Source of the DNA: Minisyncoccota bacterium
GTDB lineage: Bacteria > Patescibacteriota > Minisyncoccia > UBA6257 > GWB1-50-10
Reading direction: 5' to 3'
DNA length: 64,000 bases
Assembly: GCA_041917695.1 (NCBI GenBank)
Contig: JAYRXE010000037.1
Coordinates: 2,155 to 66,154 of the forward strand
The notes beneath the pieces were generated by a model that saw only the letters and a program-made list of their open reading frames with translations, had not been told where the DNA came from and made no database searches. Shown here piece after piece: positions 1,889 through 40,011 of this stretch. A program made the position numbers and the translations under genes. How positions within the stretch are numbered: the stretch's first letter is position 1; each line of letters begins with the position of its first letter.

Positions 1889-2995
1889 ATGAAAATAATA
1901 CTGCTTAAGAACAAACTTGTGGAAGCCTTGAACCTCGTCGAACGTGCGACGGGTTCAAACCCTTCCCTGCCAATCCTGAAAAGCGTCCTCATCGAAGCCC
2001 GGGAGAACAAGATATCGATGAGCGCGACAAACCTCGAATTCGCGGTCACATATTCGTTTTCCGGGAAAATCGTCGAAGCGGGTAGCGTAGCGGTTCCCGC
2101 CCCGCTCCTCGCGGGTCTCGTTAAAAACCTCTCCTCCGAGCGCGTGACGCTTGAATTGAAGGGGAAGAAGTTAAGCGTGGTGACCGAAAACTACGAAGCG
2201 GGCATGCAAACCCAGGAAGTGAAGGATTTCCCCATCATTCCACGGCTTACGAGCGAGGCGGCCCGTCTTGAGACCACGACGCGGGGATTCGGGGAAGGAC
2301 TCATGAGCGTCATTTCAGCGACGCAGCTTTCAGAAATCCGCCCGGAGATCAGCGGTGTTTTTGTGACGCGCGAAGGAGGGGTGATGTTGGTCGCCACCGA
2401 CAGCTTCAGGCTCGCGGAAAAGCATTTTGACAGCTTTAAATCCGAATCGCTTGAGGGGGTCCGCGCGGTGGTACCGATTCGTACCGCCGAAGAGGTCTTG
2501 CGCATCCTTACGTCGCGCGAGGATACCCCGCTAGACGTGTTTTTTGACGATACGCAGGTTTTTATGAAGACGAACGATATCGAGGTCGTTTCACGGTTGG
2601 TGGACGGCAATTTCCCCGATTATAAGGCGATTGTGCCGAAAGAAGTGAAAACGGACGTGATAGTCGACCGCCAGGAATTTCTCCAGGCGCTCCGCTTGGT
2701 AAGCACTTTTTCCACGAAAATTAACGACGTGCGCATCACGGTCGGAGAGGGGGGTAAGCACATAGAGGTTTCCTCCTCGAACTCTTCCCTCGGCGAGAAC
2801 GTGTATAAAATTCCGGCAAAAATAAAAGGCGACTCGTTTTCGGTCGCCTTCAATTGGAGGTTTTTGGTTGATGCCCTCAAGTCTTTTTCGGAGGACGATG
2901 TCAGTTTCGGCGTGAACGGCTCCGGACGGCCCTCGGTCATACGCGGCGCAGGGGATAAAAGCCTCTTGTACGTCGTGATGCCGCTCACCATCTAA
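1889..2995 (+). CDS. dnaN: DNA polymerase III beta sliding clamp
   Basis: 368 aa with typical beta-clamp N-terminus MKIILLKNKLVEALNLVERA. Position directly after dnaA. Confidence 0.93.
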   Translation: MKIILLKNKLVEALNLVERATGSNPSLPILKSVLIEARENKISMSATNLEFAVTYSFSGKIVEAGSVAVPAPLLAGLVKNLSSERVTLELKGKKLSVVTENYEAGMQTQEVKDFPIIPRLTSEAARLETTTRGFGEGLMSVISATQLSEIRPEISGVFVTREGGVMLVATDSFRLAEKHFDSFKSESLEGVRAVVPIRTAEEVLRILTSREDTPLDVFFDDTQVFMKTNDIEVVSRLVDGNFPDYKAIVPKEVKTDVIVDRQEFLQALRLVSTFSTKINDVRITVGEGGKHIEVSSSNSSLGENVYKIPAKIKGDSFSVAFNWRFLVDALKSFSEDDVSFGVNGSGRPSVIRGAGDKSLLYVVMPLTI

Positions 2996-13062: not shown

Positions 13063-13088
13063 AAAACCGCGTTTACGCGGTTTTTTAT
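13063..13088. terminator. bidirectional intrinsic terminator
   Basis: Hairpin aaaaaccgcgtttacgcggttttttatt lies between convergent genes. Its T-tract overlaps the pilB stop codon. Confidence 0.55.
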
Positions 13089-14770
13089 TTCATCCACCAG
13101 TCGATGGAGCCGGTTACGTCCTCGACTTCCGTCCGGCTCGTCACGCCCCTCAGCATTTTCAAAACACCGTCCTCCTGGAGGAATACCAATCCCTCCTTCC
13201 GCGCCGCGTCTTTCAAATCGAATTCCGTCGGGCGCGTGTAGATAAGCCGTTGGATAGGTTCCGTCACGCGGAAGAGCTCGAAGATGGACGTGCGCCCCTT
13301 GTACCCGATGCCCTGGCACGCATCGCATCCGACCGGCTCGTATATTTCTATATTTGCGTACTCGCTTTTATCCACGTTCGCCGGCAGGGATTCAACGAAC
13401 TTCTTTATCGCTTCCTTCTGAGCCTCGGAAAGCTCGAGAGGCTTCCTGCATTCCTTGCAGAGTACGCGAACCAATCGCTGGGCGATGACGAGGCGCAAGC
13501 CCGGCGCGAGGATTTGCGCCTCCGCGCCGAGGTTCAGCATGCGGGGGATCGCTCCGATCGCATCGTTCGTGTGGAGCGTCGAAAAAACGAGGTGGCCGGT
13601 GAGCGAGGCGTTCAGCGCCGTCTCGGCGGTGTCTTTGTCGCGGATTTCACCGACGAGGACCACGTCCGGGTCTTGCCGGAGAATGGAGCGGAGGCCGTTT
13701 GCGAAGGTGTAGTTCGCTTCCTCGTCGACCTGCGTCTGTGAGATGCCTTCCAGATGGTATTCGATGGGGTCTTCGACGGTGATGATTTTGATTTCCGGAT
13801 TTTTCACGTGAGACAGGAAGGCGTAGAGCGTCGTCGTCTTACCGCTTCCGGTGGGGCCGGTGTTCAGGATAAGGCCGTTCGGCTGGGCGATTTCGTGGCG
13901 CGCCACTTCAAGCAAATCTTTCCGCCAGCCCAATTCTTCGAGGTTGGCTTTCAAAGACGAGGGGTCGAGCAAACGCATGACGACCGTTTCGCCGTATTCG
14001 GAGGGGATGACGGAGGTGCGGACTTCGATGGCCTTGCCGGACGCTTTGATGGTGAAGCGCCCGTCCTGCGCTTCGCGGTGGATATTCAACTTCAATCCCG
14101 AAAGGAGCTTGATGCGCGTTACCACCGAGTGGTAGGTGTGCGTCTCGAACGCGTCGTAGGCGGTGTGAAGGATGCCGTCGAGGCGCAGGCGGAAGGTGTT
14201 TTTCGTTTCACCCGCTTCCAAGTGGATGTCGGAAGCGCCGAGGGTAAGCCCGCCCGCCAAAACGATCTCGAGCATTTGGGACGTGTACTCATTGATGTGT
14301 TCTTCGATTTCCGCGGAAAGGTCGGCGATGCTCTTAATGCGGTCGATGAGGTCTTCCAAGTGCGCCGGGTCGATGGAGACCGAACCGCTGATTTCCTTCA
14401 CCTCGGTAACGTACTGGTAATAGCTCCAGGCGTAATTCAGGGAGGTCAGCGAAACGACGAATATCTCGAGCGTCACGCCGGGCGTCGCCTTGAGTTTTTC
14501 GAGAGCTTCTTTTGCGGAGGGCGTGAGCGGGTCGAATGTGGCGACGAGGAGTTTTTGCTTGGAAATTTCAAACGGCGCGACGAGCGCGTCGTGGGCATCG
14601 GCCTCCTTCATGAGGCGCAGGGCTTTCAGGTTCACGGGGATTTTCGAAGCGATGAGGTCGAGATAGGGAAGTCCGGCGCGCGCCGCGCGCCGTTCGGCGT
14701 CCTTTTCCTCGGCGACGTGCCGTTGCTTCGCGAGCTCTTCGTCGAGACCTTTTTGGGAGGCGCTGAACAT
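13085..14770 (-). CDS. type II secretion / type IV pilus assembly ATPase (GspE/PilB family)
   Basis: Walker A GPTGSGKTTT, an Asp box, Walker B and His box, and a C-terminal tetracysteine CDACQGIGYKGR. Confidence 0.9.
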   Translation of the reverse strand: MFSASQKGLDEELAKQRHVAEEKDAERRAARAGLPYLDLIASKIPVNLKALRLMKEADAHDALVAPFEISKQKLLVATFDPLTPSAKEALEKLKATPGVTLEIFVVSLTSLNYAWSYYQYVTEVKEISGSVSIDPAHLEDLIDRIKSIADLSAEIEEHINEYTSQMLEIVLAGGLTLGASDIHLEAGETKNTFRLRLDGILHTAYDAFETHTYHSVVTRIKLLSGLKLNIHREAQDGRFTIKASGKAIEVRTSVIPSEYGETVVMRLLDPSSLKANLEELGWRKDLLEVARHEIAQPNGLILNTGPTGSGKTTTLYAFLSHVKNPEIKIITVEDPIEYHLEGISQTQVDEEANYTFANGLRSILRQDPDVVLVGEIRDKDTAETALNASLTGHLVFSTLHTNDAIGAIPRMLNLGAEAQILAPGLRLVIAQRLVRVLCKECRKPLELSEAQKEAIKKFVESLPANVDKSEYANIEIYEPVGCDACQGIGYKGRTSIFELFRVTEPIQRLIYTRPTEFDLKDAARKEGLVFLQEDGVLKMLRGVTSRTEVEDVTGSIDWWMK

Positions 14771-22864: not shown

Positions 22865-23776
22865 ATGAAATTCGCCCGGAAGAAGTCCCTGCAGAAGATA
22901 TCCACGTTTTGCATCGGCGGGCATGCCGAATATTTCTTCGAATCCGGAAGCGAACGCGAACTTTTGAAGGCCATCAAGGTAGCCGAGGAGAAAAAAATAC
23001 CGTGGCGGGTGATGGGCGAGGGGAGCAACATTCTTTTTCCCGATGCGATGACGAAGGGGCTCTTGATTCGCGTTAAGGGCGGAAAGATAGAGCGGAAGGG
23101 GAACCTCGTTGCCGTTTCCGCGGGCATTCCGCTTAAGAAGCTTATTGATTTCTCGATACAAAAAGGTCTCGGCGGACTCGAATCGCTTTCGGGCATTCCC
23201 GGAACGGTGGGGGGCGCAATCACCGGCAACGCCGGCGCGTACGGGCATTCCATAAGCGAATGCGTGAAGCGGGTCGAAGTGTGGGAGAGAGGCGCGGCGC
23301 GCTGGATACCCGCCCAGGAGTGCTCTTTTTCGTATCGCGAAAGCGGCTTCAAATACCGCCCGTGCCTTATTTTGAAAATCGAGTTGAAACTCGCGCCGGC
23401 GAAAAAATCGGAACTTCTTTTGAAATCAAAGCGCATTGTCGCGGAACGGACGCGCAAATATCCGAAGGGGTTGAAATGCCCCGGGAGTTTCTTCAAGAAT
23501 CCGCTCGTCGCCGGCATGCCCCGGTCGGCCCTGCGGAAAATCGACATGAGAAACGTCATCGACGGCAAAGTTCCGGCGGGATATCTGCTGGAGGCAGTGG
23601 GAGCGAAGGCGATGCGGGTGGGCGCCATCCAAGTCGCGGATTACCACGGGAACCTTTTCATCAATACCGGCAAGGGTACGGAAGCCCAGGTGAAGAAACT
23701 CACGAATATCTTGAAAGAGCGCGTGCAACGCACGTTCGGCATCACCCTTCACGAGGAGGTGCGCATCTGGGAGTAA
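22865..23776 (+). CDS. murB: UDP-N-acetylenolpyruvoylglucosamine reductase MurB
   Basis: FAD-binding N-terminus (FCIGGHAEYFFE, GEGSNILF) and a MurB C-terminal domain. Confidence 0.88.
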   Translation: MKFARKKSLQKISTFCIGGHAEYFFESGSERELLKAIKVAEEKKIPWRVMGEGSNILFPDAMTKGLLIRVKGGKIERKGNLVAVSAGIPLKKLIDFSIQKGLGGLESLSGIPGTVGGAITGNAGAYGHSISECVKRVEVWERGAARWIPAQECSFSYRESGFKYRPCLILKIELKLAPAKKSELLLKSKRIVAERTRKYPKGLKCPGSFFKNPLVAGMPRSALRKIDMRNVIDGKVPAGYLLEAVGAKAMRVGAIQVADYHGNLFINTGKGTEAQVKKLTNILKERVQRTFGITLHEEVRIWE

Positions 23777-24402
23777 TGGGAAAAGCCGAGGAGCTCGAAC
23801 GGATCGCTGCCGACCTTGATGCTGATGAATCGCTCCCGCTTCGGGAAGCGAATGTGGTGTTCGGAGAAGGGAATCCCGATGCTGAGGTCGTCTTTATCGG
23901 CGAAGCGCCGGGAAAAAACGAAGACCTTGAGCGGAGGCCGTTTGTCGGGCGCGCCGGACAGCTTTTGCGCGCGTTGATACGCGAGGCCGGGTGGGAGGAG
24001 CGGGATGTCTACATAACGAATATCGTGAAGCGCCGACCGCCGGAAAACCGCGACCCCCTCCCGCACGAGATTGAAAGCTATAAACCGTACCTTGCCCGGC
24101 AATTGCGGGTGCTCAAGCCCAAGGTCATTGCGACCCTCGGGCGTTTTTCCATGAATTATTTTCTTCCCCTCGCGAAGATCTCGCGGGACCACGGAAAGGT
24201 GTACAAGCTCGGCGATTCGCTCCTGGTGCCTTTGTATCATCCCGCCGCAGCGTTGCGGGCGACCGGCGTGAAGCAGGAGCTCGAACGCGACTTCAAAAAA
24301 CTCCCGCGGGTCGTTCAAAAATATTCCGAGCTTCTTTCGAAGTACGGCGCGCCCGATGAAGGGAGGGAAGGGCCCCGCGAAACGCAGGAGGGCCTATTGT
24401 AG
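23776..24402 (+). CDS. uracil-DNA glycosylase, family 4
   Basis: GEGNPDAEVVFIGEAPG and HPAAAL motifs. The start overlaps the murB stop by 1 nt (TAATG). The ORF-track N-terminal extension from 23260 is rejected. Confidence 0.85.
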   Translation: MGKAEELERIAADLDADESLPLREANVVFGEGNPDAEVVFIGEAPGKNEDLERRPFVGRAGQLLRALIREAGWEERDVYITNIVKRRPPENRDPLPHEIESYKPYLARQLRVLKPKVIATLGRFSMNYFLPLAKISRDHGKVYKLGDSLLVPLYHPAAALRATGVKQELERDFKKLPRVVQKYSELLSKYGAPDEGREGPRETQEGLL

Positions 24403-24410
24403 CGCCCCGC

Positions 24411-24821
24411 ATGCGGGGACGAAGCCTTGATTTAGGGGTATACTTTTTACATATCATGCCGCGCGTCGTTTTGGATCGCCTGTTGTTCATTGCCTATATT
24501 TTTGAACGGCTTCTTTTCCGTTTTTGGGAGTTTATCCGCCGGTGGTACGCCGGCGCGGCGATGTGGTTTTGGCGGAAAACCCTGGAACGCTTGCAATCGC
24601 TTGACCGCCGCATCGCCCTCAAGGTGACGGTCATTTATTTCTTCCGGCCTCTGTTCGGCGACGAATCCGTCATCGGGCGGCTTCTCGGTTTCTTTTTCCG
24701 GACGCTCCGCATCGTCTTCGCTTCGGCGCTGTATCTGGTTATCCTCGCCGCCGCCGCATTTGCATATCTTCTGTGGGCGCTTTTCCCCGTCTTCGTGATT
24801 TCAAAAATCGTACTTCCATGA
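24411..24821 (+). CDS. hypothetical small membrane protein, translationally coupled to downstream Clp-like ATPase
   Basis: About 3 TM helices. Its stop overlaps the next start (ATGA). Confidence 0.45.
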   Translation: MRGRSLDLGVYFLHIMPRVVLDRLLFIAYIFERLLFRFWEFIRRWYAGAAMWFWRKTLERLQSLDRRIALKVTVIYFFRPLFGDESVIGRLLGFFFRTLRIVFASALYLVILAAAAFAYLLWALFPVFVISKIVLP

Positions 24822-27313
24822 CCTTCATTTTCCGCGACAAGCGCTTTTTCTTTTCGGTCGTTGAGGAGGCGATATTCCATATCCTTTCCTACGCGACGTA
24901 TGTCTGCCTCGGTGCGGCGGCGTTCATCCTGCTTTTTTCCGATATTCCGCCCCTCCGGTGGTTTGGCCTCCTCATCTTTCTTTTTCTCGCCGATCGGGCG
25001 TTCCAGATCGGAAAGGGGGAACGGAAGCTCTGGCAACTTCACGGCAAACCGCCTGTGAATGTCGCGCGCGCCGCAACTCCGCGGACCGTCGCCATCCTTC
25101 ACCGCGCCTTCCGTACCGCGCAGGCGACGGGAGAAGATATCGGGTTTCTCATCCTCGGCGAGCTTTTAAAAGAGGGGCAGATGAAGCACATCCTTCTGCG
25201 TTTGGGCACCAACCACAAGGAATTTGCGGAAAAAGCTTCTGAATACGGGGAGCATGCGCCATTGCTCACCCGGACTGAGCGCGAAGCGTTCGATGAAATC
25301 GAAAGCATTGCGCTTGCCGCCGCAAAAAACGCCGCCCGCCTGCGGGACCCGTACATCTATCCGGCAAACCTTTTTGCCGCGCTTTTCGAGCATCCTTCGC
25401 CGGCGCTTTCGAAGCTTTTCTATCTTTTCGAGATGGATGCGCGCGATGCGGAATCCGCCCCGCTCTTTAAGCGCGTGGGCCTCTCGACCCGCGCGCTCCG
25501 GGCGCTCCGAACATTTTCCTTTTTTGCCCCTGCTCCGCGCAGGGAAAGGGGAAAGACGATGAACCGTGCGTGGACCGCCCGGCCGACCCCTCTCTTGGAC
25601 AGCTGGAGTGAGGACGTGACCGCGCTTGCCGAAGCGGGAGCTGTCGGTTTCCTCGTGGGACACGACAAAGAATATGAAACGCTTGTTTCCATACTCGCGA
25701 AGCCCGGGAGACCGAATGCCATTCTTGTGGGCGAGGCGGGAGCGGGAAAATCGACGCTTATCGAGCACTTGGCGCTCCAAATGGCGCGCGACGAAGCGCC
25801 GAAGGCCTTTTTCGACAAGCGCCTCGTTTCGTTGAACCTTGCCGAGCTTATGTCGGGTGCGGACGTGAAGGTGATCAGCGAACGGTTGAAGCGCGTGACG
25901 GAAGAAATCTTGCGGGCGGGCAATGTGGTGCTTGCCATCATGAACGCCGAGGAGCTTTTCAAATCCGAGACCGCACGCGCCGCAGAGCCGATCGACTTTC
26001 TCCTTCCCGTCATCGAATCCGGCGACATCCCCGTCATTGCGGCCGCGAACACCCGGGAATTCAAGCGTCTCATCGAACCCCGCTCGGATTTTTTGAAGTT
26101 ATTTGAAATCGTCCGCGTCGAGGAGGTCACGGAGGAGGAAGCGGTCCGCTTTTTGGTCCGGGAGAGCCTCTATCTTGAACGGGAGTTTTCCCTGCCGATT
26201 ACTTTCCGCGCCATGCGGAAGTCCGCGGAGCTTGCCAAGCGCTATTTCCGTTCGCGTCTTTTGCCGGGAAGCGCTCTCGATCTTTTGAAACAATCGGCTG
26301 CGGAGGCGGCGAAGCGCCGCGAACGGACGCTGACCGGCGAGTTGGTGGTCGAGGTGGCTGAACGGCAAAGTAAGGTTCCGATCCAGAAAGCGGACGCCAA
26401 GGAAGCGGAGAAGCTCTTGAATCTGGAGACGCGCATCCATGAACGCCTCGTAAACCAAACTGAGGCCGTCTCCGCGGTTTCCCGGGCGCTCCGCGAATTC
26501 CGGAGCGGCCTTTCCCGCTCCGGAAGCCCCATCGCCTCGTTCCTTTTTGTCGGTCCCACGGGCGTCGGAAAGACGGAGCTTGCAAAGACGCTTGCCGCGA
26601 TTCAGTTCGGTTCCGAATCGCTTATGCGCCGTTTCGACATGTCCGAATACCAGGACAAACAGTCGCTGTATCGCTTGATTGGCACCCCCGACGGTTCGAA
26701 AACCGGCCTCCTCACCGATGCCATTCTCGAAAATCCGTATAGTCTCGTGCTCCTCGACGAATTCGAGAAAGCCCATCCCGATATCCTGAACCTCTTTCTC
26801 CAGGTGCTCGACGACGGACGGCTTACCGATTCCTCCGGCAGGACGGCCGATTTTGAAAACGTCATTATCATCGCGACGTCAAACGCGCATTCCGATTTCA
26901 TCAAGTCGGAAATCGAGCGGAAGGTTTCCCCGGGCGAGCTCGCGGAAAGCGTGAAGGCGAAGCTCACGGAAGTTTTCCGTCCCGAACTCGTGAACCGGTT
27001 TTCGGATATCGTCGTTTTCCGCCCCCTTACGCCTGCGGAGATTGAAGAAGTCGCCTCGCGCATGCTTGCAAGTCTCTGCGAACAGATTCTCTCGACCCAC
27101 GGGATTCGTCTCTCGATCGATACCGCCGCGGTGAAGCGCATTGCGGAGATCGGGTACAGCCCCGTTTTCGGTTCCCGCCCTCTCCGCCAGGCGATTTCGG
27201 AAAATATCCGGGGCGCTTTGGCGGAGAAGCTTTTGAAAAAAGAAATCGGCCGGGGCAATTCCCTCCGCGTCACCTATGCGCAGAACGGTTTTGCCTGGAC
27301 CGTGGTAGAATAA
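24818..27313 (+). CDS. membrane-anchored ClpA/ClpB-family AAA+ ATPase with degenerate first nucleotide-binding domain
   Basis: Two N-terminal TM helices. D1 has an atypical Walker A (GEAGAGKST) and no DExx Walker B. D2 is canonical (GPTGVGKTELAKTLA, LLDEFEKAH, a sensor region and a C-terminal D2-small domain). Confidence 0.75.
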   Translation: MTFIFRDKRFFFSVVEEAIFHILSYATYVCLGAAAFILLFSDIPPLRWFGLLIFLFLADRAFQIGKGERKLWQLHGKPPVNVARAATPRTVAILHRAFRTAQATGEDIGFLILGELLKEGQMKHILLRLGTNHKEFAEKASEYGEHAPLLTRTEREAFDEIESIALAAAKNAARLRDPYIYPANLFAALFEHPSPALSKLFYLFEMDARDAESAPLFKRVGLSTRALRALRTFSFFAPAPRRERGKTMNRAWTARPTPLLDSWSEDVTALAEAGAVGFLVGHDKEYETLVSILAKPGRPNAILVGEAGAGKSTLIEHLALQMARDEAPKAFFDKRLVSLNLAELMSGADVKVISERLKRVTEEILRAGNVVLAIMNAEELFKSETARAAEPIDFLLPVIESGDIPVIAAANTREFKRLIEPRSDFLKLFEIVRVEEVTEEEAVRFLVRESLYLEREFSLPITFRAMRKSAELAKRYFRSRLLPGSALDLLKQSAAEAAKRRERTLTGELVVEVAERQSKVPIQKADAKEAEKLLNLETRIHERLVNQTEAVSAVSRALREFRSGLSRSGSPIASFLFVGPTGVGKTELAKTLAAIQFGSESLMRRFDMSEYQDKQSLYRLIGTPDGSKTGLLTDAILENPYSLVLLDEFEKAHPDILNLFLQVLDDGRLTDSSGRTADFENVIIIATSNAHSDFIKSEIERKVSPGELAESVKAKLTEVFRPELVNRFSDIVVFRPLTPAEIEEVASRMLASLCEQILSTHGIRLSIDTAAVKRIAEIGYSPVFGSRPLRQAISENIRGALAEKLLKKEIGRGNSLRVTYAQNGFAWTVVE

Positions 27314-29739: not shown

Positions 29740-30249
29740 ATGGGCGAACTAGAGAAAAAAACATTCCTCGAGGCCTATGACGCCCATGCCGATTCGCTCT
29801 ATCGGCACGCGTACTTTAGAGTCCACGACCGCGGAAAAGCGGAGGAGCTTATGCAGGAAGCGTTTATGCGCGCGTGGGAATATTCGGGGAGCCACGGCTT
29901 GCCGCAAAATTTGCGGGCGTTTCTCTACCGGGTGCTCAACAACCTCATCATCGACGATTTCCGGAAGAAAAAACCAGCGTCCCTCGACGAGCTTTCCGAG
30001 GCGGGGTTTGAGCCTGCGGAGGAGTCGGCCGACGTCGATATCGTCGAAGTGGCGATCATCCGCGAGATGCTCGGCGAATTGCCGGACCATCATCGCGAAG
30101 TGGTCGTGATGCGTTTCATCGACGGTTTCACGCCCTCCGAGATCGCCGAGGTTACGGGGGAGCGGGAAAACACCGTCTCGGTACGCATCCACCGCGCGCT
30201 TCTCAAGCTCAAAAAAGCCTACGAAGCGAGGCAGAAAAAGGCCGCATAA
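29740..30249 (+). CDS. RNA polymerase sigma-70 factor, ECF subfamily
   Basis: Region 2 (LMQEAFMRAW) and region 4 HTH (EIAEVTGERENTVSVRIHRALLKLKK). Confidence 0.85.
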   Translation: MGELEKKTFLEAYDAHADSLYRHAYFRVHDRGKAEELMQEAFMRAWEYSGSHGLPQNLRAFLYRVLNNLIIDDFRKKKPASLDELSEAGFEPAEESADVDIVEVAIIREMLGELPDHHREVVVMRFIDGFTPSEIAEVTGERENTVSVRIHRALLKLKKAYEARQKKAA

Positions 30250-30261
30250 CCATTTATATAT

Positions 30262-31752
30262 ATGAACCCTATACATCACGAAAAATTTGAATCCGAATCG
30301 AAGCGGCTTTTTCTCGACCCCGCGCGGAAAGCGGAAATCCGGGCGAACCTCGTTTCCTTCATGGAAAAGGCTCCCGTAAGGGATGAGGTTCCCAATCGTT
30401 ATATGAATATGGGCCAGGCCTTGTCCGGCCGGCTCGAGCGAATAATGTCGCTCAAAAAGAATGTATTACGTATCATGCCTATTGCACTTATTTTGGCGCT
30501 GATTTTGGGAGGGGGCGCCACCTTTGCGGCGGAGTCGGCCCTTCCGGGCGACACGCTGTATCCTGTTAAGGTCGAAGTGAACGAGAATGTCCGCGGGTGG
30601 TTTGCCGCGTCCGACGAAGCGAAAGCCAAGTGGGAATCGGAACTCGCCGAACGCCGGCTTGAAGAAGCTGAAAAACTGGCGGCTGACGGCCGCTTGGATG
30701 CGTCAGCGACTGCCGATTTGAAATCGCGTTTTTCGGAGCATTCGGCGGAAGTGAAGAGCCGGGTCGAGGTGATGGAATCGGCGGACGATAGCCGTCCTGC
30801 CGCGCTTTCCGTGAGCTCCGATTTTGACGCTAAGCTCCGCGCACACACCGATATCCTTACCGCTCTTTCGGTGAAAAAGACTGAAGTTGCGGATGACGTG
30901 AGGGATATCGTGGCGGTAGTGAACGCCGAAGCGAACGCCGTCGCTTCCGTGAAAGCGGATGCCGAGTCGGGCATTGCCCGCGGGAACGCTGAAGCCGAAG
31001 TGAAGATTCGCGCAGCGGCCGAAGCGCGCCGGAAAGCGGCAGAGCAGAAGATCGCTGAAGCGAGAAAACTCCTTTCCGCACCGCAGGTAGCCGATGTGGC
31101 GACCTACGCTGAAGCTGAAGCGAAAATCAAACTTGCCGATGAGCTCTATGGCCAGGGCGAGGGGTATTTCAAGGCTGAGGCGTATGGCAAGGCTTTCGTT
31201 TCTTTCCAGGAAGCCTTCGCCAACGCGGTGAAAGCGTGGACGGTCCTCCGAGGGAGCGCCGCGCTCCAGGTTTCGGTGGGAAGCGCGACGACGGTAAGTC
31301 CGGGTATTGCGCCGAATCCCAATCCCAACCAGGGGCAAAAGACCCCGCAGACGGTTGCTGAGGCGAAATACCGCGAGGCCGTTTCCACCATTGCGGAAAT
31401 CAGGACTTTCATTTCGGTCCGCCTGGGCGTTATGACGGAAGAGATGGCAAAACGCGTCGAGGCCCAGTTGGCGCTTGCCGACCGCTTAGTTGCGGAAGGG
31501 AAGTCCTACTTCAGCGCCGGTGCGTATGAGAAGGCTTCCGTAAGCTTTGACGGAGCCACCGAGGCGGCGAAGGCGGTCCATAAGATCCTCTATGGCGACG
31601 ACCCGCGCGTCCCTGCGGCGGGAAATCTCGTTCCTGTTCAAAAAACGAGTCCGTCCGGCGAGGTTGAGATAGAGTTCGAGGATTCCTTGGAATCCGGCAA
31701 GAACCGCTCAAGCGGCTCCGGCAGCGGGAGCGTCGAAGTGAAACTTCGGTAA
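30262..31752 (+). CDS. single-pass membrane protein with Ala-rich coiled-coil exodomain (candidate anti-sigma / DUF5667-like)
   Basis: Immediately downstream of the ECF sigma. It has a cytoplasmic N-terminus, one TM helix and a long A/E/K-rich periplasmic domain. Confidence 0.5.
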   Translation: MNPIHHEKFESESKRLFLDPARKAEIRANLVSFMEKAPVRDEVPNRYMNMGQALSGRLERIMSLKKNVLRIMPIALILALILGGGATFAAESALPGDTLYPVKVEVNENVRGWFAASDEAKAKWESELAERRLEEAEKLAADGRLDASATADLKSRFSEHSAEVKSRVEVMESADDSRPAALSVSSDFDAKLRAHTDILTALSVKKTEVADDVRDIVAVVNAEANAVASVKADAESGIARGNAEAEVKIRAAAEARRKAAEQKIAEARKLLSAPQVADVATYAEAEAKIKLADELYGQGEGYFKAEAYGKAFVSFQEAFANAVKAWTVLRGSAALQVSVGSATTVSPGIAPNPNPNQGQKTPQTVAEAKYREAVSTIAEIRTFISVRLGVMTEEMAKRVEAQLALADRLVAEGKSYFSAGAYEKASVSFDGATEAAKAVHKILYGDDPRVPAAGNLVPVQKTSPSGEVEIEFEDSLESGKNRSSGSGSGSVEVKLR

Positions 31753-32728: not shown

Positions 32729-32886
32729 CTGTGGAGATGGTGGGAATTTCACATCGCTCCGCTCTTTGGAACCCAGCGGTTCCAATACCTCCGCCACGGG
32801 GAAACTCTCGTTTCCCTGGCCCCTTTCCTAGTTCAACTCCATATCTCCGAAATCAAATTACCTCCCATTGGGAGGTAATTTGATTC
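32729..32886 (-). repeat. tmRNA 3'-flanking structured module ending in a copy of the tmRNA acceptor 3' strand
   Basis: ctgtggagatggtgggaatttcac at 32729-32752 duplicates the ssrA 3' end at 32886. The intervening sequence shares hairpins and motifs with the modules that follow tRNA-Pro and tRNA-Lys. Confidence 0.7.
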
Positions 32887-33218
32887 TGTGGAGATGGTGG
32901 GAGTTGAACCCACGTCCGATGAGGAGCGTCCATGCGATCTACGAGCGTAGTTTCTGATTGCTCAGAGGAACGATATTCCGAACTGGATTTCTCGCTTTCC
33001 CTTCTTTGTCCGGAGGGTCCGGAAAAGCCAGCCTAAGGTATTACACCGGATGCCTCCTATTAGGCATCAGAGTCCGATGTCCGGAGCGTTACGCCGCGAA
33101 GGCGAACGCCGGAACTGCAACTTTGTTGTTGTCAGTTAGTGTTTGTGGCCGGAGTACGAGCGTGCCGTCTCGGCCCGCACGCGTGAGCGCTTTCTTACCG
33201 TCGAAGCCCGACATCCCC
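32887..33218 (-). ncRNA. ssrA: tmRNA (ssrA)
   Basis: 5' GGGGAUGUCGGGCUUCGACGG pairs with 3' CAUCUCCA. The T-arm GGUUCAACUCCC is present. The tag ORF ends ...VAVPAFAFAA-UAA. The gene is adjacent to smpB. Confidence 0.88.
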
Positions 33219-33267: not shown

Positions 33268-33543
33268 TTAGCCCTTGCCTATATTTCGTCTTTTAAGGAA
33301 CTCGCTTTTAAGCCTTTGCTTAAATCGGCCACCCCATAGGCTTTTCAGGAATCGCTCGCGATTGAAAGCTTCGGTTTTATCCAAAAACTTTTCAGAATGA
33401 ATCAGAGTTAGCGGGCGGCGATTGTGAGTTGCTTCGACAATTCCTTGTTCATGCGCCTTTAGTCGATGCTCAAGATTTGAAGTGCATCCCACATAAAGTT
33501 TTTCGTCTTTCTCACTGAAGAGAATATAAACGAAATATTCCAT
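33268..33543 (-). CDS. GIY-YIG domain nuclease (UPF0213/YhbQ-like), low-GC insertion between ssrA and smpB
   Basis: YFVYILFSEKDEKLYVGCTSNLEHRLKAH is a GIY-YIG motif. GC is much lower than the flanks. Confidence 0.75.
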   Translation of the reverse strand: MEYFVYILFSEKDEKLYVGCTSNLEHRLKAHEQGIVEATHNRRPLTLIHSEKFLDKTEAFNRERFLKSLWGGRFKQRLKSEFLKRRNIGKG

Positions 33544-33547
33544 AAAC

Positions 33548-33988
33548 CTATTTGTGAAACCTGCGGATTTCGCGTTCGGTTTCGCGCTTCTTGATCACCT
33601 CGCGCTTGTCGAACTGCTTTTTCCCGCGCCCGAGTCCAAGCTCAAGCTTCAGGAATCCGCGCTTATTGTTATAGAGCGAGACGGGGACGAGGGTCAAGCC
33701 GGTTTTCATTTTTTCAGCGAGGGTTTTCAGCTCTTTTTTACCGAGAAGGAGTTTCCGCGTCCGGTCCGGCTTGTGGGATTCGGGGACGTTTCCCGGCTGG
33801 AAGGGCTGGATCATGAGGCCGACCACGAAAGCCTCGCCGTTCCGGATGATGGCGTGCGAGCCCTGGAGGTTCGCCCGGCCCATTTTCACCGATTTCGCCT
33901 CAAGACCGGTCAAAACAACCCCCGCCTCGAGGGTGTCGAGTATCTCATAGTCGAATCTAGCTCTTTTATTGACGGCGTAGGGTTCCAT
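33548..33988 (-). CDS. smpB: SsrA-binding protein SmpB
   Basis: AVNKRARFDYEI...GLEAKSVKMGRANL. ATG chosen at MEPYAV. The ORF track extends to a TTG at 34018. Confidence 0.88.
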   Translation of the reverse strand: MEPYAVNKRARFDYEILDTLEAGVVLTGLEAKSVKMGRANLQGSHAIIRNGEAFVVGLMIQPFQPGNVPESHKPDRTRKLLLGKKELKTLAEKMKTGLTLVPVSLYNNKRGFLKLELGLGRGKKQFDKREVIKKRETEREIRRFHK

Positions 33989-34041
33989 ACGTAGCCTAAG
34001 GGTAGCATTTAATATCAATTTAAAAAAAGAAAGGAGGCCGT

Positions 34042-36525: not shown

Positions 36526-39500
36526 ATGCTGAAGAAGATAGAAAAATTCTCACTCCCGGACGTCGAAACGCGCGTCCTGGAATTTTGGAAGAAGAACAAG
36601 ACGTTCGAGCGCGCGCTTTCCCGCGGGAAAAAGCGGAAGACTTTTGTTTTTTACGAAGGCCCGCCGACGGCGAACGGCCGCCCCGGCATCCACCATGTGC
36701 TCGGCCGGGCCTTTAAGGACGTCGTTTTGCGGTACAAGACGATGCGGGGCTACCACGTTCCGCGGAAGGGCGGATGGGATACCCACGGGCTTCCCGTCGA
36801 GATTGAAGTGGAAAAAACCCTTGGGCTCAAATCGAAGCGGGAAATCGAGGAATACGGCGTTGCCGAGTTTAATGCGGAATGCCGCAAGTCGGTGTGGAAG
36901 TACAAGGATGAATGGGAGCGGCTCACGGAACGCATGGGCTTTTGGCTCGATATGGACCGGCCGTACGTTACGTATAAGAACGAATATATTTCTGTCGTAT
37001 GGCAGGTCGTGAAGGAAATCGAGAAACGGGGCCTCATCTATAAGGGGCATAAGATCGTTCCGTGGTGCACGCGGTGCGGCACCGCGCTTTCCTCCCATGA
37101 GCTCGCGCAAGGCTACCGGGAGGTTACGGACAATTCGGTATATGTGAAATTCAAGGTTGCGAGCAAGGCCTTTAACGACGGCACTCCCGTTCCGCCGAAC
37201 ACCTACATTCTTTCGTGGACGACGACTCCCTGGACGCTTCCGGGGAACGTTGCCCTCGCCGTCGGTAAAAAAATATCTTATTCATATATTGAGGTAGGGG
37301 ATGAGCGGTATATTGTTGCGACTGATCTCATCACGAAAATCTTTCCATCTTCGGAAGATACGGCTCGGAGCGGAAAAGAGTTCCTGGGGGAAAACCTTCT
37401 TGGTTTGCGGTACGACCCGCTTTTCCGGGTTAATTCTAAGGAATTTGAAAACAATGAGCGCGCCTTCACGGTGCAACCCGCAGATTTCGTAACGACGACG
37501 GACGGCACGGGTGTCGTGCATACCGCCGTGATGTACGGCGAGGATGACTACCGGCTCGGCGAGGAGCTCGGCCTTCCGCAATTCCATACGGTTTCAGCCG
37601 ACGGGCGTTTTGTTCCCGACGTTGAGGGTATTGCGGGGGAGAAGGCGAAGACCCCGGAGACCGAGGAAAAAATTTTCACCCATCTGCGTTCCCGGGGGCT
37701 GCTTTTCAAGATCGAGCCGTATGTCCATGAATACCCGCATTGTTGGCGTTGCGGAACGCCGCTCCTCTACTACGCGAGGCATTCGTGGTTTGTGCGCATG
37801 AGCAGCCTGCGCGGAGCGCTTATGAAGGAAAACGCGAAGATCAACTGGATTCCCGAGAATCTGCGCGAGGGCCGGTTCGGTGCGTGGCTTTCCGAGGCGA
37901 AGGATTGGGCGATTTCGCGCGAGCGGTATTGGGGTACGCCTTTGCCCATATGGGAATGCGACCGCTGCCCCGAACGGAGGGTCGTAACGGGGGATGCTGA
38001 TTTTGCGGAGCTCAAGCCGAAAAACCGCTATATCCTCATGCGCCACGGCTATTCCGAAAGCAATGCGAAAGATATGCTCGATTCGCACGGCGGCAAGAAG
38101 ACCTTTCCGCTTACGAAACGCGGAGAGCGCGAAGCGCGGGAAGCCGCACGGAAGCTCGGGAAGGAAAAAGTCGACGTCGTATTCGCTTCGGATGTGTACC
38201 GCGCGAAACAGACGGCGGAAATCGTTTCCGAGGCGCTCGGCGCCCCCGTGCACATCGATCCGCGCTTACGCGAAATAAACGTAGGATCGCTTGCCGGAAC
38301 GTCCCACCGGAAATTCGACGCCCTCCCCGAAAAACTGAAATTTCTCGAGGCGGTTCCGGGCGGAGAATCCCGCAATGATGTGCGCCGCCGAGTATACGCT
38401 TTTTTGAAGGAATGCGAGGAAAAATACGACGGGCAGACGATCCTTGTCGTGAGCCATGACGATCCGTTGTGGATGATGCTTGCCGTGATGAACGGCTGGG
38501 ATTCCGACGAGGCGATCGCGTGGGCGAAACGCAAAAAAGGAGCCTTGTTTCCCTTTGCGGGCTTTTCCAAAGCCGACTATCGGGTGATTCCCCGCGATGA
38601 ATTGGGGGTGAAGGATTACCACAAGCCGTATATCGACGAGATGGCTTTCCCGTGCGTGTGCGGGGGGAGGATGCGCCGCGCGCCGGAGGTCATGGACGTG
38701 TGGTTCGATTCCGGTTCGATGCCCTGGGCGCAAAAAGGGTACCTGTATGCCCCGAAAGCCAAAAGAATCGACCGTTCAGACTTCCCGGCTGATTATATCG
38801 CCGAAGGCGTCGACCAGACCCGCGGGTGGTTCTACACCATGCTTGCCATCGGCGTTCTTTTGGAGGCGGGTTCTCCCTATAAGACGGCGATGTCTTTGGG
38901 GCTCCTCTTGGATTCCAAAGGCCAAAAAATGTCCAAGTCGAAAGGCAACGTGGTCGATCCCTGGGAGATGATGGAGCGCCACGGCGTTGACGTTGCGCGC
39001 TGGTTTTTCTTCACGGTGAATCCGCCCGGCGAGCCGAAGCGCTTCGACGAACGCGAGCTCGTGAAGGTTTCCCGGCAGGTCTTCATGATTCTTTACAACT
39101 CGTTCGCCTTCCTCGATTTATACGGGAAGCAAACCGCGCGACGGAAAATCGTTCCGACCCACGTGCTCGACCGGTGGGTGATGGCGCGGCTTCACGCGAC
39201 GATTCAAGCGACTCAAAAGGCCATGGACGCGTATGAAATAGGGGACGCCGCCCGCGCAATCCAGGGACTCGTGGACGACCTTTCGCGCTGGCATATCCGC
39301 CGGAGCCGGAAGCGTTTCCAACGGCCCGTCTCGCAAAAAGACCGCGAGCAGGCTTCCGCGGTCCTCGCGCACGTGATGCGGGAGATCGCAAAGCTTCTGG
39401 CGCCTTTCACGCCGTTCTTCGCGGAGGCACTCTATAAATCCCTTTCGCAGAAGGCGTCTGATTCCGTGCATCTTGCTTCCTGGCCGGCGTTTGAGAAAAA

Positions 39501-40011
39501 GCTTTTTGACGCGAAACTCCTTTCCTACATGGAGGAGACTCGCCGCATTGCGAGCCTCACGCTCGCCAAGCGCGCCGAACTGGGCATCAAGGTCCGCCAA
39601 CCCCTTGCCGAGTTGCGCGTGAAATCCACCCTTTTGAAGGGCGTGAAGGCGAAGGAATGCCTCCTTATTTTGAAGGACGAGGTGAACGTGAAGCGCGTCG
39701 TTTTCGACCCATCGCTTACCGAAGAAATAACGCTCGATACGGCGATCACCCCCGAATTGAAGGAAGAGGGTTTGCTTCGCGAGCTTGTCCGCGCCATCCA
39801 GGAACTCCGTCAGGAAGCGGGGTTCGTACCGAAAGACAAGGTGCGCGTCTACGTTTCGGGCGCGGGTTTGGGGCTTATCGAACGCCACGGCGATTTCCTG
39901 AAGCGGGAAGTGAATGCGCGCTCCATCGAATTCCAGCATTTGGTGAAAAAAGCGAAAGCCGAAACGACCGTAGACCTCGACGAGGGCCACGCCTGGATCG
40001 GCGTCCTCTAA
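36526..40011 (+). CDS. ileS: isoleucine--tRNA ligase carrying an inserted histidine-phosphatase (PGAM-like) domain
   Basis: HIGH-type PPTANGRPGIHH, WAISRERYWGTP and KMSKSKGN. An insert of about 215 aa (37960-38620) contains ILMRHGYSESN and ILVVSHDDP. Confidence 0.9.
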   Translation: MLKKIEKFSLPDVETRVLEFWKKNKTFERALSRGKKRKTFVFYEGPPTANGRPGIHHVLGRAFKDVVLRYKTMRGYHVPRKGGWDTHGLPVEIEVEKTLGLKSKREIEEYGVAEFNAECRKSVWKYKDEWERLTERMGFWLDMDRPYVTYKNEYISVVWQVVKEIEKRGLIYKGHKIVPWCTRCGTALSSHELAQGYREVTDNSVYVKFKVASKAFNDGTPVPPNTYILSWTTTPWTLPGNVALAVGKKISYSYIEVGDERYIVATDLITKIFPSSEDTARSGKEFLGENLLGLRYDPLFRVNSKEFENNERAFTVQPADFVTTTDGTGVVHTAVMYGEDDYRLGEELGLPQFHTVSADGRFVPDVEGIAGEKAKTPETEEKIFTHLRSRGLLFKIEPYVHEYPHCWRCGTPLLYYARHSWFVRMSSLRGALMKENAKINWIPENLREGRFGAWLSEAKDWAISRERYWGTPLPIWECDRCPERRVVTGDADFAELKPKNRYILMRHGYSESNAKDMLDSHGGKKTFPLTKRGEREAREAARKLGKEKVDVVFASDVYRAKQTAEIVSEALGAPVHIDPRLREINVGSLAGTSHRKFDALPEKLKFLEAVPGGESRNDVRRRVYAFLKECEEKYDGQTILVVSHDDPLWMMLAVMNGWDSDEAIAWAKRKKGALFPFAGFSKADYRVIPRDELGVKDYHKPYIDEMAFPCVCGGRMRRAPEVMDVWFDSGSMPWAQKGYLYAPKAKRIDRSDFPADYIAEGVDQTRGWFYTMLAIGVLLEAGSPYKTAMSLGLLLDSKGQKMSKSKGNVVDPWEMMERHGVDVARWFFFTVNPPGEPKRFDERELVKVSRQVFMILYNSFAFLDLYGKQTARRKIVPTHVLDRWVMARLHATIQATQKAMDAYEIGDAARAIQGLVDDLSRWHIRRSRKRFQRPVSQKDREQASAVLAHVMREIAKLLAPFTPFFAEALYKSLSQKASDSVHLASWPAFEKKLFDAKLLSYMEETRRIASLTLAKRAELGIKVRQPLAELRVKSTLLKGVKAKECLLILKDEVNVKRVVFDPSLTEEITLDTAITPELKEEGLLRELVRAIQELRQEAGFVPKDKVRVYVSGAGLGLIERHGDFLKREVNARSIEFQHLVKKAKAETTVDLDEGHAWIGVL

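Follow-up and report, generated by a model that had tools for sequence, protein, structure and literature searches.

A two-ring Clp/Hsp100-type ATPase with a putative membrane anchor, a small membrane partner and no aromatic pore loops in Patescibacteria

It is well established that Clp/Hsp100 ATPases grip and pull polypeptides by means of aromatic pore-1 loops; Torsins, relatives of this group that lack aromatic pore loops and act with transmembrane cofactors (LAP1/LULL1), are thought not to thread their substrates, and in TorsinA and TorsinB a hydrophobic domain at the N-terminus serves membrane association (PMC5425593). An N-terminal membrane anchor places the AAA+ ring of FtsH and Msp1/ATAD1 under the membrane (PMC7949044, PMC12793716). 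We analysed a 64,000-nucleotide stretch of contig JAYRXE010000037.1 from a Minisyncoccota bacterium (the window, whose numbering is used for all positions unless another locus is named), in which the gene for a small membrane protein overlaps the gene for a large AAA+ protein (Table 1). We cautiously favour the view that the two products are subunits of one membrane-embedded, Clp/Hsp100-derived complex, which would be driven by the second ATPase ring (D2) of the large subunit and would remodel a membrane client without threading it.

The large protein is, judged by its sequence, a class I Clp/Hsp100 ATPase with two rings, and no named member of the group fits it. Pfam domains along the protein are AAA_2 (7e-51), ClpB_D2-small (8e-17), AAA_lid_9 (1.5e-7) and a P-loop near residue 300. 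A sequence search of the PDB returned ClpC and ClpB at E~1e-108 (1e-88 to 1e-108 for ClpA/ClpC), with an unbroken alignment of query residues 240–817 to ClpA 149–732, and the AlphaFold2 model (predicted local distance difference test, pLDDT, 87; predicted template modelling score, pTM, 0.74) has ClpC, ClpB and ClpA as its best Foldseek matches. When scored against NCBIfam hidden Markov models, the protein falls far below the cut-offs for ClpB (TIGR03346, 448.7 bits against 1232.1, its best NCBIfam score), ClpA (TIGR02639, 402.1 against 993.15), ClpV/TssH (TIGR03345, 370.6 against 884.95), and ClpK and ClpG (388 and 375 bits against 1900). Its database label is 'ATP-dependent Clp protease ATP-binding subunit ClpC/ClpA'.

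The order of N-domain, D1, D2 and C-terminal small domain is that of ClpA and ClpC, and, as in ClpA, there is no long M-domain; the protein differs from both in its membrane hairpin, its dead D1 and the loss of the ClpP loop and of the pore-loop tyrosines. ClpB and Hsp104 are close to it in NCBIfam score, in a highly similar D2 and in the absence of a ClpP loop, whereas the window protein lacks the pore tyrosines and the M-domain coiled coil that couples ClpB to DnaK/Hsp70, has an inactive D1 and is probably membrane-anchored. The absence of the M-domain is evident from the ClpB alignment, which splits in two, and from the ClpC alignment, which skips the inter-ring insert; AlphaFold2 places only short helices (residues 484–518) between D1 and D2. 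In place of the ClpP-docking loop, every aligned member shows a seven-residue gap opposite the ClpC sequence FAGFGG, no [IVL]-G-[FL] tripeptide occurs in residues 690–720 of the large protein, and Pfam gave no Peptidase_M41 match in it. Because it has no ClpP-docking loop, the complex would not be the partner of a protease, and because it has no M-domain, it would not be a DnaK-coupled disaggregase. Neither a ClpP-like serine motif nor a canonical ClpB was found within the 64-kb window, to which this search was confined.

The ring motifs were mapped in 116 full-length homologues (44–68% identity) by HMMER and MAFFT alignments, with S. aureus ClpC and T. thermophilus ClpB as references. A preliminary description of the locus had called the D1 Walker A atypical; its reading of the motif, GEAGAGKST, was correct, but the sequence fits GxxxxGK[ST], departs from the Clp consensus GEPGVGKT at two positions and is therefore only mildly atypical, and its lysine is present in 114 of the homologues. 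The same description found no acidic Walker B in D1, which the alignment confirms: M-N stands where ClpC and ClpB have D-E, and in the family the pair has become P-[N/D], with proline at the Asp position in 111 of 116 members. The two arginine fingers (R-R) are replaced by E/Q-type residues in the family and by K-L in the window protein, and no arginine is found at the finger positions in any homologue. With the Walker A lysine kept but the Walker B acids and the arginine fingers absent, D1 can probably bind nucleotide but cannot hydrolyse ATP; its earlier classification as inactive holds, with Walker B acids, arginine fingers and pore tyrosine missing family-wide in a module that is non-canonical on alignment. 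In D2, the Walker A, Walker B (LLDEFEKAH), sensor 1 (TSN), arginine finger (NRF) and sensor 2 (GARPLR) motifs are invariant in all 116 homologues. By its motifs D2 is catalytically intact, and to this extent canonical, as had been proposed; what departs from the canon is its pore loop, from which a four-residue deletion removes the GYVG motif.

In more than this one ring the loops that should hold the substrate have been altered. The D1 pore loop, AGxKYRGEFE in the references, is replaced by variable sequence, and that of D2, GAPPGYVG[YH]xxGGQLT, has become G-x-P-D-G-x-x-x-G-x-L-T, having lost four residues and its tyrosine. This deletion does not depend on the placement of gaps, because the invariant anchors DMSEY and LLDE have moved closer by four residues (a spacing of 40 in the window protein against 44 in T. 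thermophilus ClpB). No aromatic residue is present in either pore-1 loop (KYRG in D1, GYVG in D2) of any of the 116 members, and acidic residues are frequent in the pore loops of the family. Because both aromatic loops are missing, non-processive remodelling or release is favoured over disaggregation or ClpP-coupled unfolding, and the complex most likely does not pull polypeptides processively through its pore. The ClpB-like disaggregase or unfoldase that had been assumed as the default mechanism is not supported: the protein has neither an M-domain nor an aromatic pore-loop residue in either ring, and its NCBIfam scores lie far under the cut-offs.

Two transmembrane helices in place of the Clp N-domain had been proposed for the N-terminus of the large protein. 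A hydrophobic hairpin (residues 14–62) is indeed present, both its helices are modelled with pLDDT >90, and it is kept across the family, with D59 invariant, which supports membrane anchoring; helix 1 is a plausible membrane span (summed insertion energy about 0 kcal/mol), while helix 2 is marginal. The N-domain, in turn, has not been replaced. A profile built from residues 1–262 of 24 family members matches the N-domain of ClpA (E=7e-8, profile 97–219 to ClpA 10–139) and dozens of ClpC N-domains (~1e-6), 7 of the 24 members, though not the window protein taken alone, give a weak Pfam hit to Clp_N, and AlphaFold2 predicts an eight-helix domain (residues 82–233), as expected for a Clp N-domain. 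By profile and model, a Clp N-domain is retained and the hairpin is added in front of it.

Between N-domain and D1 lies a basic linker (residues 223–249), predicted to be disordered (pLDDT <50) and leading into a motif whose extended form is MNRAWTARPTPxLD and in which N249, R250, T253, P256 and T257 are invariant. It should be noted that this region (window 25484–25591, + strand) is conserved despite its disorder. Many family members carry the tetrapeptide LGGF in the linker, which was considered as a displaced ClpP-docking motif; this idea was rejected, since the window protein itself has no LGGF.

The two genes share the tetranucleotide ATGA (24818–24821) on the + strand, in which the start codon of the large open reading frame (ORF; ATG, 24818–24820) overlaps the stop codon of the small one (TGA, 24819–24821), as reported before. 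The large product has 831 amino acids and not 832. For the small ORF, an in-frame ATG at 24411 yields the 136 amino acids of the preliminary description. All homologues of the small protein (113–121 amino acids) align from its sixteenth codon (M16, 24456), and the gene calls on four contigs of identical sequence give a protein of 121 amino acids and a 4-nt overlap. As homologues and gene calls alike begin at M16, the small protein probably starts at 24456 and has 121 amino acids, and the upstream ATG at 24411 is probably not used. Neither ORF is a chance feature, because both are long and have hundreds of conserved homologues. Scans for promoters and terminators around the gene pair gave counts no higher than in shuffled sequence.

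Further evidence for a joint function comes from the distribution of the pair. The linker motif MNRAWTARPTP was used as a search pattern among GTDB species representatives and retrieved 305 related loci. Almost all of the 80 loci that were kept bear the label Patescibacteria, Paceibacterota or Parcubacteria or that of a lineage belonging to these groups (Jorgensen-, Wolfe-, Colwell-, Harrison-, Brenner- and Liptonbacteria, Minisyncoccia), some labels being generic or doubtful, and the family appears to be confined to Patescibacteria, mainly to Paceibacteria-type lineages. A profile of the small protein found 760 proteins in a database clustered at 90% identity (469 representatives at 50%). In 83 of 84 loci the AAA+ gene is preceded, on its own strand, by a gene for a homologue of the small protein, the lone exception beginning at a contig end. 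The two genes lie less than 60 nt apart in 80 of 83 loci from species representatives, where they mostly overlap. Other neighbours are less constant: uracil-DNA glycosylase (UDG) is found in 43 of the 84 loci, NUDIX in 37, MurB in 26 and an MGMT-like gene in 16. The dedicated membrane partner that had been suggested is supported by this conserved adjacency and by natural fusions.

Two proteins, P0387 and P0391, join the small domain (match E~1e-19) to a related AAA+ protein; in both, the small domain is followed by one membrane helix, a Clp N-like region, D1 and D2. P0391 occurs on four contigs, three of which were examined and come from three different samples. These natural fusions are strong evidence that both products act as one machine. 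They also bear on topology: because two membrane helices separate the fused small domain from the necessarily cytoplasmic ATPase, the N-terminal part of the small subunit should be cytoplasmic as well. Both fusions keep D-E in the Walker B of D1 and lack aromatic pore loops, and their D2 pore loops are even shorter, that of P0387 being almost gone. The loss of the pore loops is therefore the older change and clade-wide, and the decay of D1 is specific to the split-gene form.

The small protein, labelled 'hypothetical' in databases, had been described as a triple-spanning membrane protein. Its AlphaFold2 model, built with 86 homologues (pLDDT 93), consists instead of two helices of ~50 residues (2–53 and 72–119) joined by a loop, and P65, L66, D69 and G74 are invariant in the 86 sequences. 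The only segment with a family-averaged hydropathy above 2 and a summed insertion energy of at most 0 is residues ~86–115, whereas helix 1 gives 9–20 kcal/mol and for this reason is not a membrane helix. Because only residues ~86–115 are hydrophobic enough to span a membrane, the small protein is predicted to have one C-terminal membrane anchor and not three spans. Helix 1 is amphipathic (hydrophobic moment 0.41 against 0.195 +/- 0.096 in shuffles; family mean 0.384) with a net charge of +3, and we infer that it lies in the cytoplasm. No relative of known function was found for this subunit: Pfam returned scattered noise only, with the protein alone and with 86 family members, its profile had no match among PDB sequences at E<=10, Foldseek of the model against the PDB gave only generic helical hairpins (best E=4.9), and neither NCBIfam nor PADLOC matched it.

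Among described systems, the closest functional precedent is the Torsin, which likewise combines the absence of aromatic pore loops with membrane association and a membrane cofactor. The window protein nonetheless falls outside the Torsins, by its two rings and by an arginine finger of its own: Torsins have a single AAA+ module, reside in the endoplasmic reticulum lumen and borrow the arginine finger of their cofactor, whereas R727 of the window protein is invariant and the small subunit, by its AlphaFold2 model, has no AAA-like fold. The comparison would thus be one of analogy, with no specific homology beyond common Clp/Hsp100 ancestry. Pex1/Pex6 forms a double ring with an inactive D1 and an active D2 that is held by tail-anchored Pex15/PEX26, and so resembles our pair in both rings and in its small tail-anchored membrane partner; it differs in that it belongs to the classic Cdc48-like clade, has aromatic D2 loops, threads its substrate and has no membrane segment of its own in the ATPase. 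With FtsH and Msp1/ATAD1 the window protein shares the N-terminal anchor and a ring beneath the membrane, but each of these has only one AAA+ module, whose pore loop is aromatic, and FtsH has an M41 protease domain besides.

In the arrangement we favour, the N-terminal hairpin would tether the large subunit to the cytoplasmic side of the membrane, with N-domain, D1 and D2 hanging below, and this subunit would assemble into a hexameric double ring whose N-domain/D1 face is turned towards the bilayer. D1 would serve as a nucleotide-binding assembly scaffold without hydrolysis, and D2 alone would drive the machine. The small subunit would be an obligate and stoichiometric membrane partner, produced by coupled translation. 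The target of the ATP cycles in D2 would probably be a membrane-associated client, which the small subunit and the N-domain would hold jointly and which would be remodelled or set free. Three observations weigh against this arrangement. The second helix of the hairpin is short, with ~13 hydrophobic residues, and reaches only +5 to +7 kcal/mol for a 19-residue window; the D2 pore loop conserves P624, D625, G626 and G630 within the split-gene family and could still grip a substrate; and the order of domains points the face by which substrates enter, N-domain and D1, at the membrane.

The last two of these points are also what keeps alive the main rival, a conventional membrane-tethered unfoldase or extractase, whose hexamer would thread membrane proteins or aggregated proteins from the membrane-facing D1 side through the non-aromatic D2 loop, as Msp1 or the ATPase part of FtsH would. 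The invariant catalytic motifs of D2 and the retention of the Clp N-domain, the usual site for substrates and adaptors, also count in its favour. Mutation of the pore tyrosine in ClpB, Hsp104 or ClpA abolishes translocation, and here neither ring has an aromatic pore-1 residue in any of the 116 members, the D1 loop is variable in sequence and the D2 loop is four residues shorter and nearly gone in the fused P0387. We therefore regard an extractase as possible but unlikely.

A broader proposal takes the non-threading remodeller further, as a bacterial counterpart of the Torsin principle in which an Hsp100 with a small partner remodels the membrane or envelope, or gates a pore, and forms a core machine of Paceibacteria-type lineages, possibly tied to their life with a host; we offer it as a speculation with a small chance of being right. 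Somewhat less probable still is a membrane channel or translocon for which the complex would serve as motor or gate, loosely comparable to HSP101-EXP2 of the Plasmodium PTEX complex or to Bcs1; at least 18 membrane helices, joined by the amphipathic helices that six small subunits contribute, would line a pore on the same axis as the ring. A channel would suit a family that seems to be restricted to bacteria thought to rely on exchange with host cells; the obligate pairing, the fusions and the long conserved amphipathic helix, which packs along the membrane helix in the AlphaFold2 model, point the same way. Set against these are the failure of Pfam, the PDB sequence search and Foldseek to reveal any channel-family homology for the small subunit, the basic aromatic character of helix 1, which suits lying flat on the membrane surface equally well, and the missing loops for pushing a polypeptide.

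We consider it very unlikely that the large protein is a decayed pseudo-ATPase with a purely structural role at the membrane: D1 is catalytically dead and the pore loops, the M-domain and the ClpP loop have all been lost, as decay would predict, but the D2 motifs are unchanged in 116 of 116 homologues despite their 44–68% identity, which argues for strong selection for ATP hydrolysis. That the small ORF is a mere conserved neighbour of unrelated function is hardly tenable, since its adjacency (80 of 83 loci) far exceeds that of the next best neighbour (43 of 84), start and stop codons overlap and two independent fusion proteins exist, even though UDG, NUDIX and MGMT-like genes likewise keep their order without an obvious functional link.

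Table 1. Features of the gene pair and its fused relatives. Positions refer to the window, except for the two fusions, which are given by locus.
Feature	Position	Strand	Basis or remarks
Small-subunit gene	24456..24821	+	121 aa; homologue alignment, gene calls on identical contigs, AlphaFold2 pLDDT 93
Small subunit, helix 1 (residues 2-53)	24459..24614	+	Basic aromatic amphipathic helix; AlphaFold2, hydrophobic moment
Small subunit, loop motif F-x-P-L-[FY]-x-D-x-S (residues 61-71)	24636..24668	+	Conserved in 86 sequences
Small subunit, single C-terminal membrane helix, predicted (residues ~86-115)	24711..24800	+	Hydropathy, insertion energy; within AlphaFold2 helix 72-119
AAA+ subunit gene	24818..27313	+	831 aa plus stop; identical 831-aa protein in public databases
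Hydrophobic helical hairpin (residues 14-62)	24857..25003	+	Hydropathy; AlphaFold2 helices 14-39 and 44-62
Divergent Clp N-domain, eight helices (residues ~82-233)	25061..25516	+	Family profile, Pfam Clp_N, AlphaFold2
Linker motif MNRAWTARPTP (residues 248-258)	25559..25591	+	Near-invariant; follows disordered basic linker
D1 AAA+ module, degenerate	25601..26377	+	Alignments to ClpC and ClpB; family statistics
D1 Walker A GEAGAGKST (residues 305-313)	25730-25756	+	
D1 pore loop SGADVKVISERL	25853-25888	+	Without aromatic residue
D1 Walker B VVLAIMNA, D-E replaced by M-N	25925-25948	+	Aligned with ClpC and ClpB
D1 arginine-finger site, reads K-L	26093-26104	+	
D2 AAA+ module with C-terminal small domain	26435..27310	+	AAA_2 7e-51, ClpB_D2-small 8e-17
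D2 Walker A	26552-26578	+	
D2 shortened pore loop LIGTPDGSKTGLLTDA	26675..26722	+	GYVG[YH] lost, no aromatic residue
D2 Walker B LVLLDEFE	26744-26767	+	
D2 sensor 1 N689, arginine finger R727, sensor 2 R787	large protein	+	Invariant in family
Fusion P0387, 849 aa	L085 723-3272		Small domain and related AAA+ protein
Fusion P0391, 841 aa	L086 2244-4769		Small domain and related AAA+ protein

The pair is part of a closely packed series of co-directional genes, in the order MurB, UDG, small gene, AAA+ gene, NUDIX and MGMT-like gene, and the fusion gene of locus L086 stands between a DprA gene, from which an unannotated ORF of 120 amino acids separates it, and a TopA gene. A link to DNA repair through these neighbours (UDG, PolX, NUDIX and MGMT-like genes, and DprA and TopA beside the fused relative) was rejected as unsupported, because none of them exceeds 43 of 84 loci, whereas the pair is kept together in 80 of 83; a role on DNA is further disfavoured because the pore loops are often acidic. 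A role in anti-phage defence was also rejected. The three strongest PADLOC matches of the large protein (PDC-M37B, DolB) lie over D2, and the remainder, with E values of 1e-8 or worse, are limited to short segments of generic AAA/P-loop sequence, part of them in D1; these matches are generic to AAA+ proteins, the small protein gave none, and the synteny with housekeeping genes is conserved. No type VI secretion genes are present among the annotated neighbours of the pair. Directly upstream, an ORF of 380 amino acids (window 23260–24402, + strand) over-extends the UDG gene: the UDG domain occupies residues 201–339, and gene calls on the identical contigs give a protein of 208 amino acids.

Several other features of the window were recorded. 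A transfer-messenger RNA (tmRNA) gene (32886–33218), with the tag peptide DNNKVAVPAFAFAA, is followed in the numbering by ORFs at 33268–33543 and 33548–34018 (all on the - strand); these neighbouring ORFs of 91 and 156 amino acids were judged GIY-YIG-like and SmpB-like, respectively, by eye from their N-terminal sequences only. The hydrophobic AFAA end of the tag implies that it is read by some AAA+ protease, none of which is visible within the window. An ORF of 1161 amino acids (36526–40011, + strand) encodes an IleRS-like class I tRNA synthetase (tRNA-synt_1, Anticodon_1) with a His_Phos_1 histidine-phosphatase domain (E=6.5e-38) at residues 503–663, an unusual insertion inside the synthetase core. 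The ORFs at 330–1697 and 1889–2995 (+ strand) look DnaA-like and DnaN-like by eye from their N-terminal sequences, and if they truly are, the window adjoins the chromosomal replication origin. An extracytoplasmic-function (ECF) sigma factor (29740–30249, + strand) is followed closely by a DUF5667 protein of 496 amino acids (30262–31752, + strand), probably as a sigma/anti-sigma-like pair, and the gene at 13085–14770 (- strand) specifies a type II/IV secretion ATPase that resembles PilB (T2SSE, E=1.6e-111).

In the literature on membrane-anchored Clp/Hsp100 proteins, and on Clp proteins in Patescibacteria, Parcubacteria or the candidate phyla radiation (CPR), we found no description of this family. 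Its annotation as ClpC/ClpA is misleading for a protein that lacks the ClpP loop, the M-domain and the pore tyrosines, has a dead D1 and a probable membrane anchor, and goes with an obligate partner that is itself unannotated. The gene pair appears to belong to the core of a large uncultured lineage, and its conservation across hundreds of species of this major group suggests that its function is likely a core one. For the AAA+ field, it would represent a naturally occurring Hsp100 with two rings, one of them an intact ATPase that has been uncoupled from the canonical loops that grip the substrate. Such a machine would bear on how these motors may act without threading, a question that is also open for the Torsins, and its naturally split and fused forms offer ready-made constructs for structural work.

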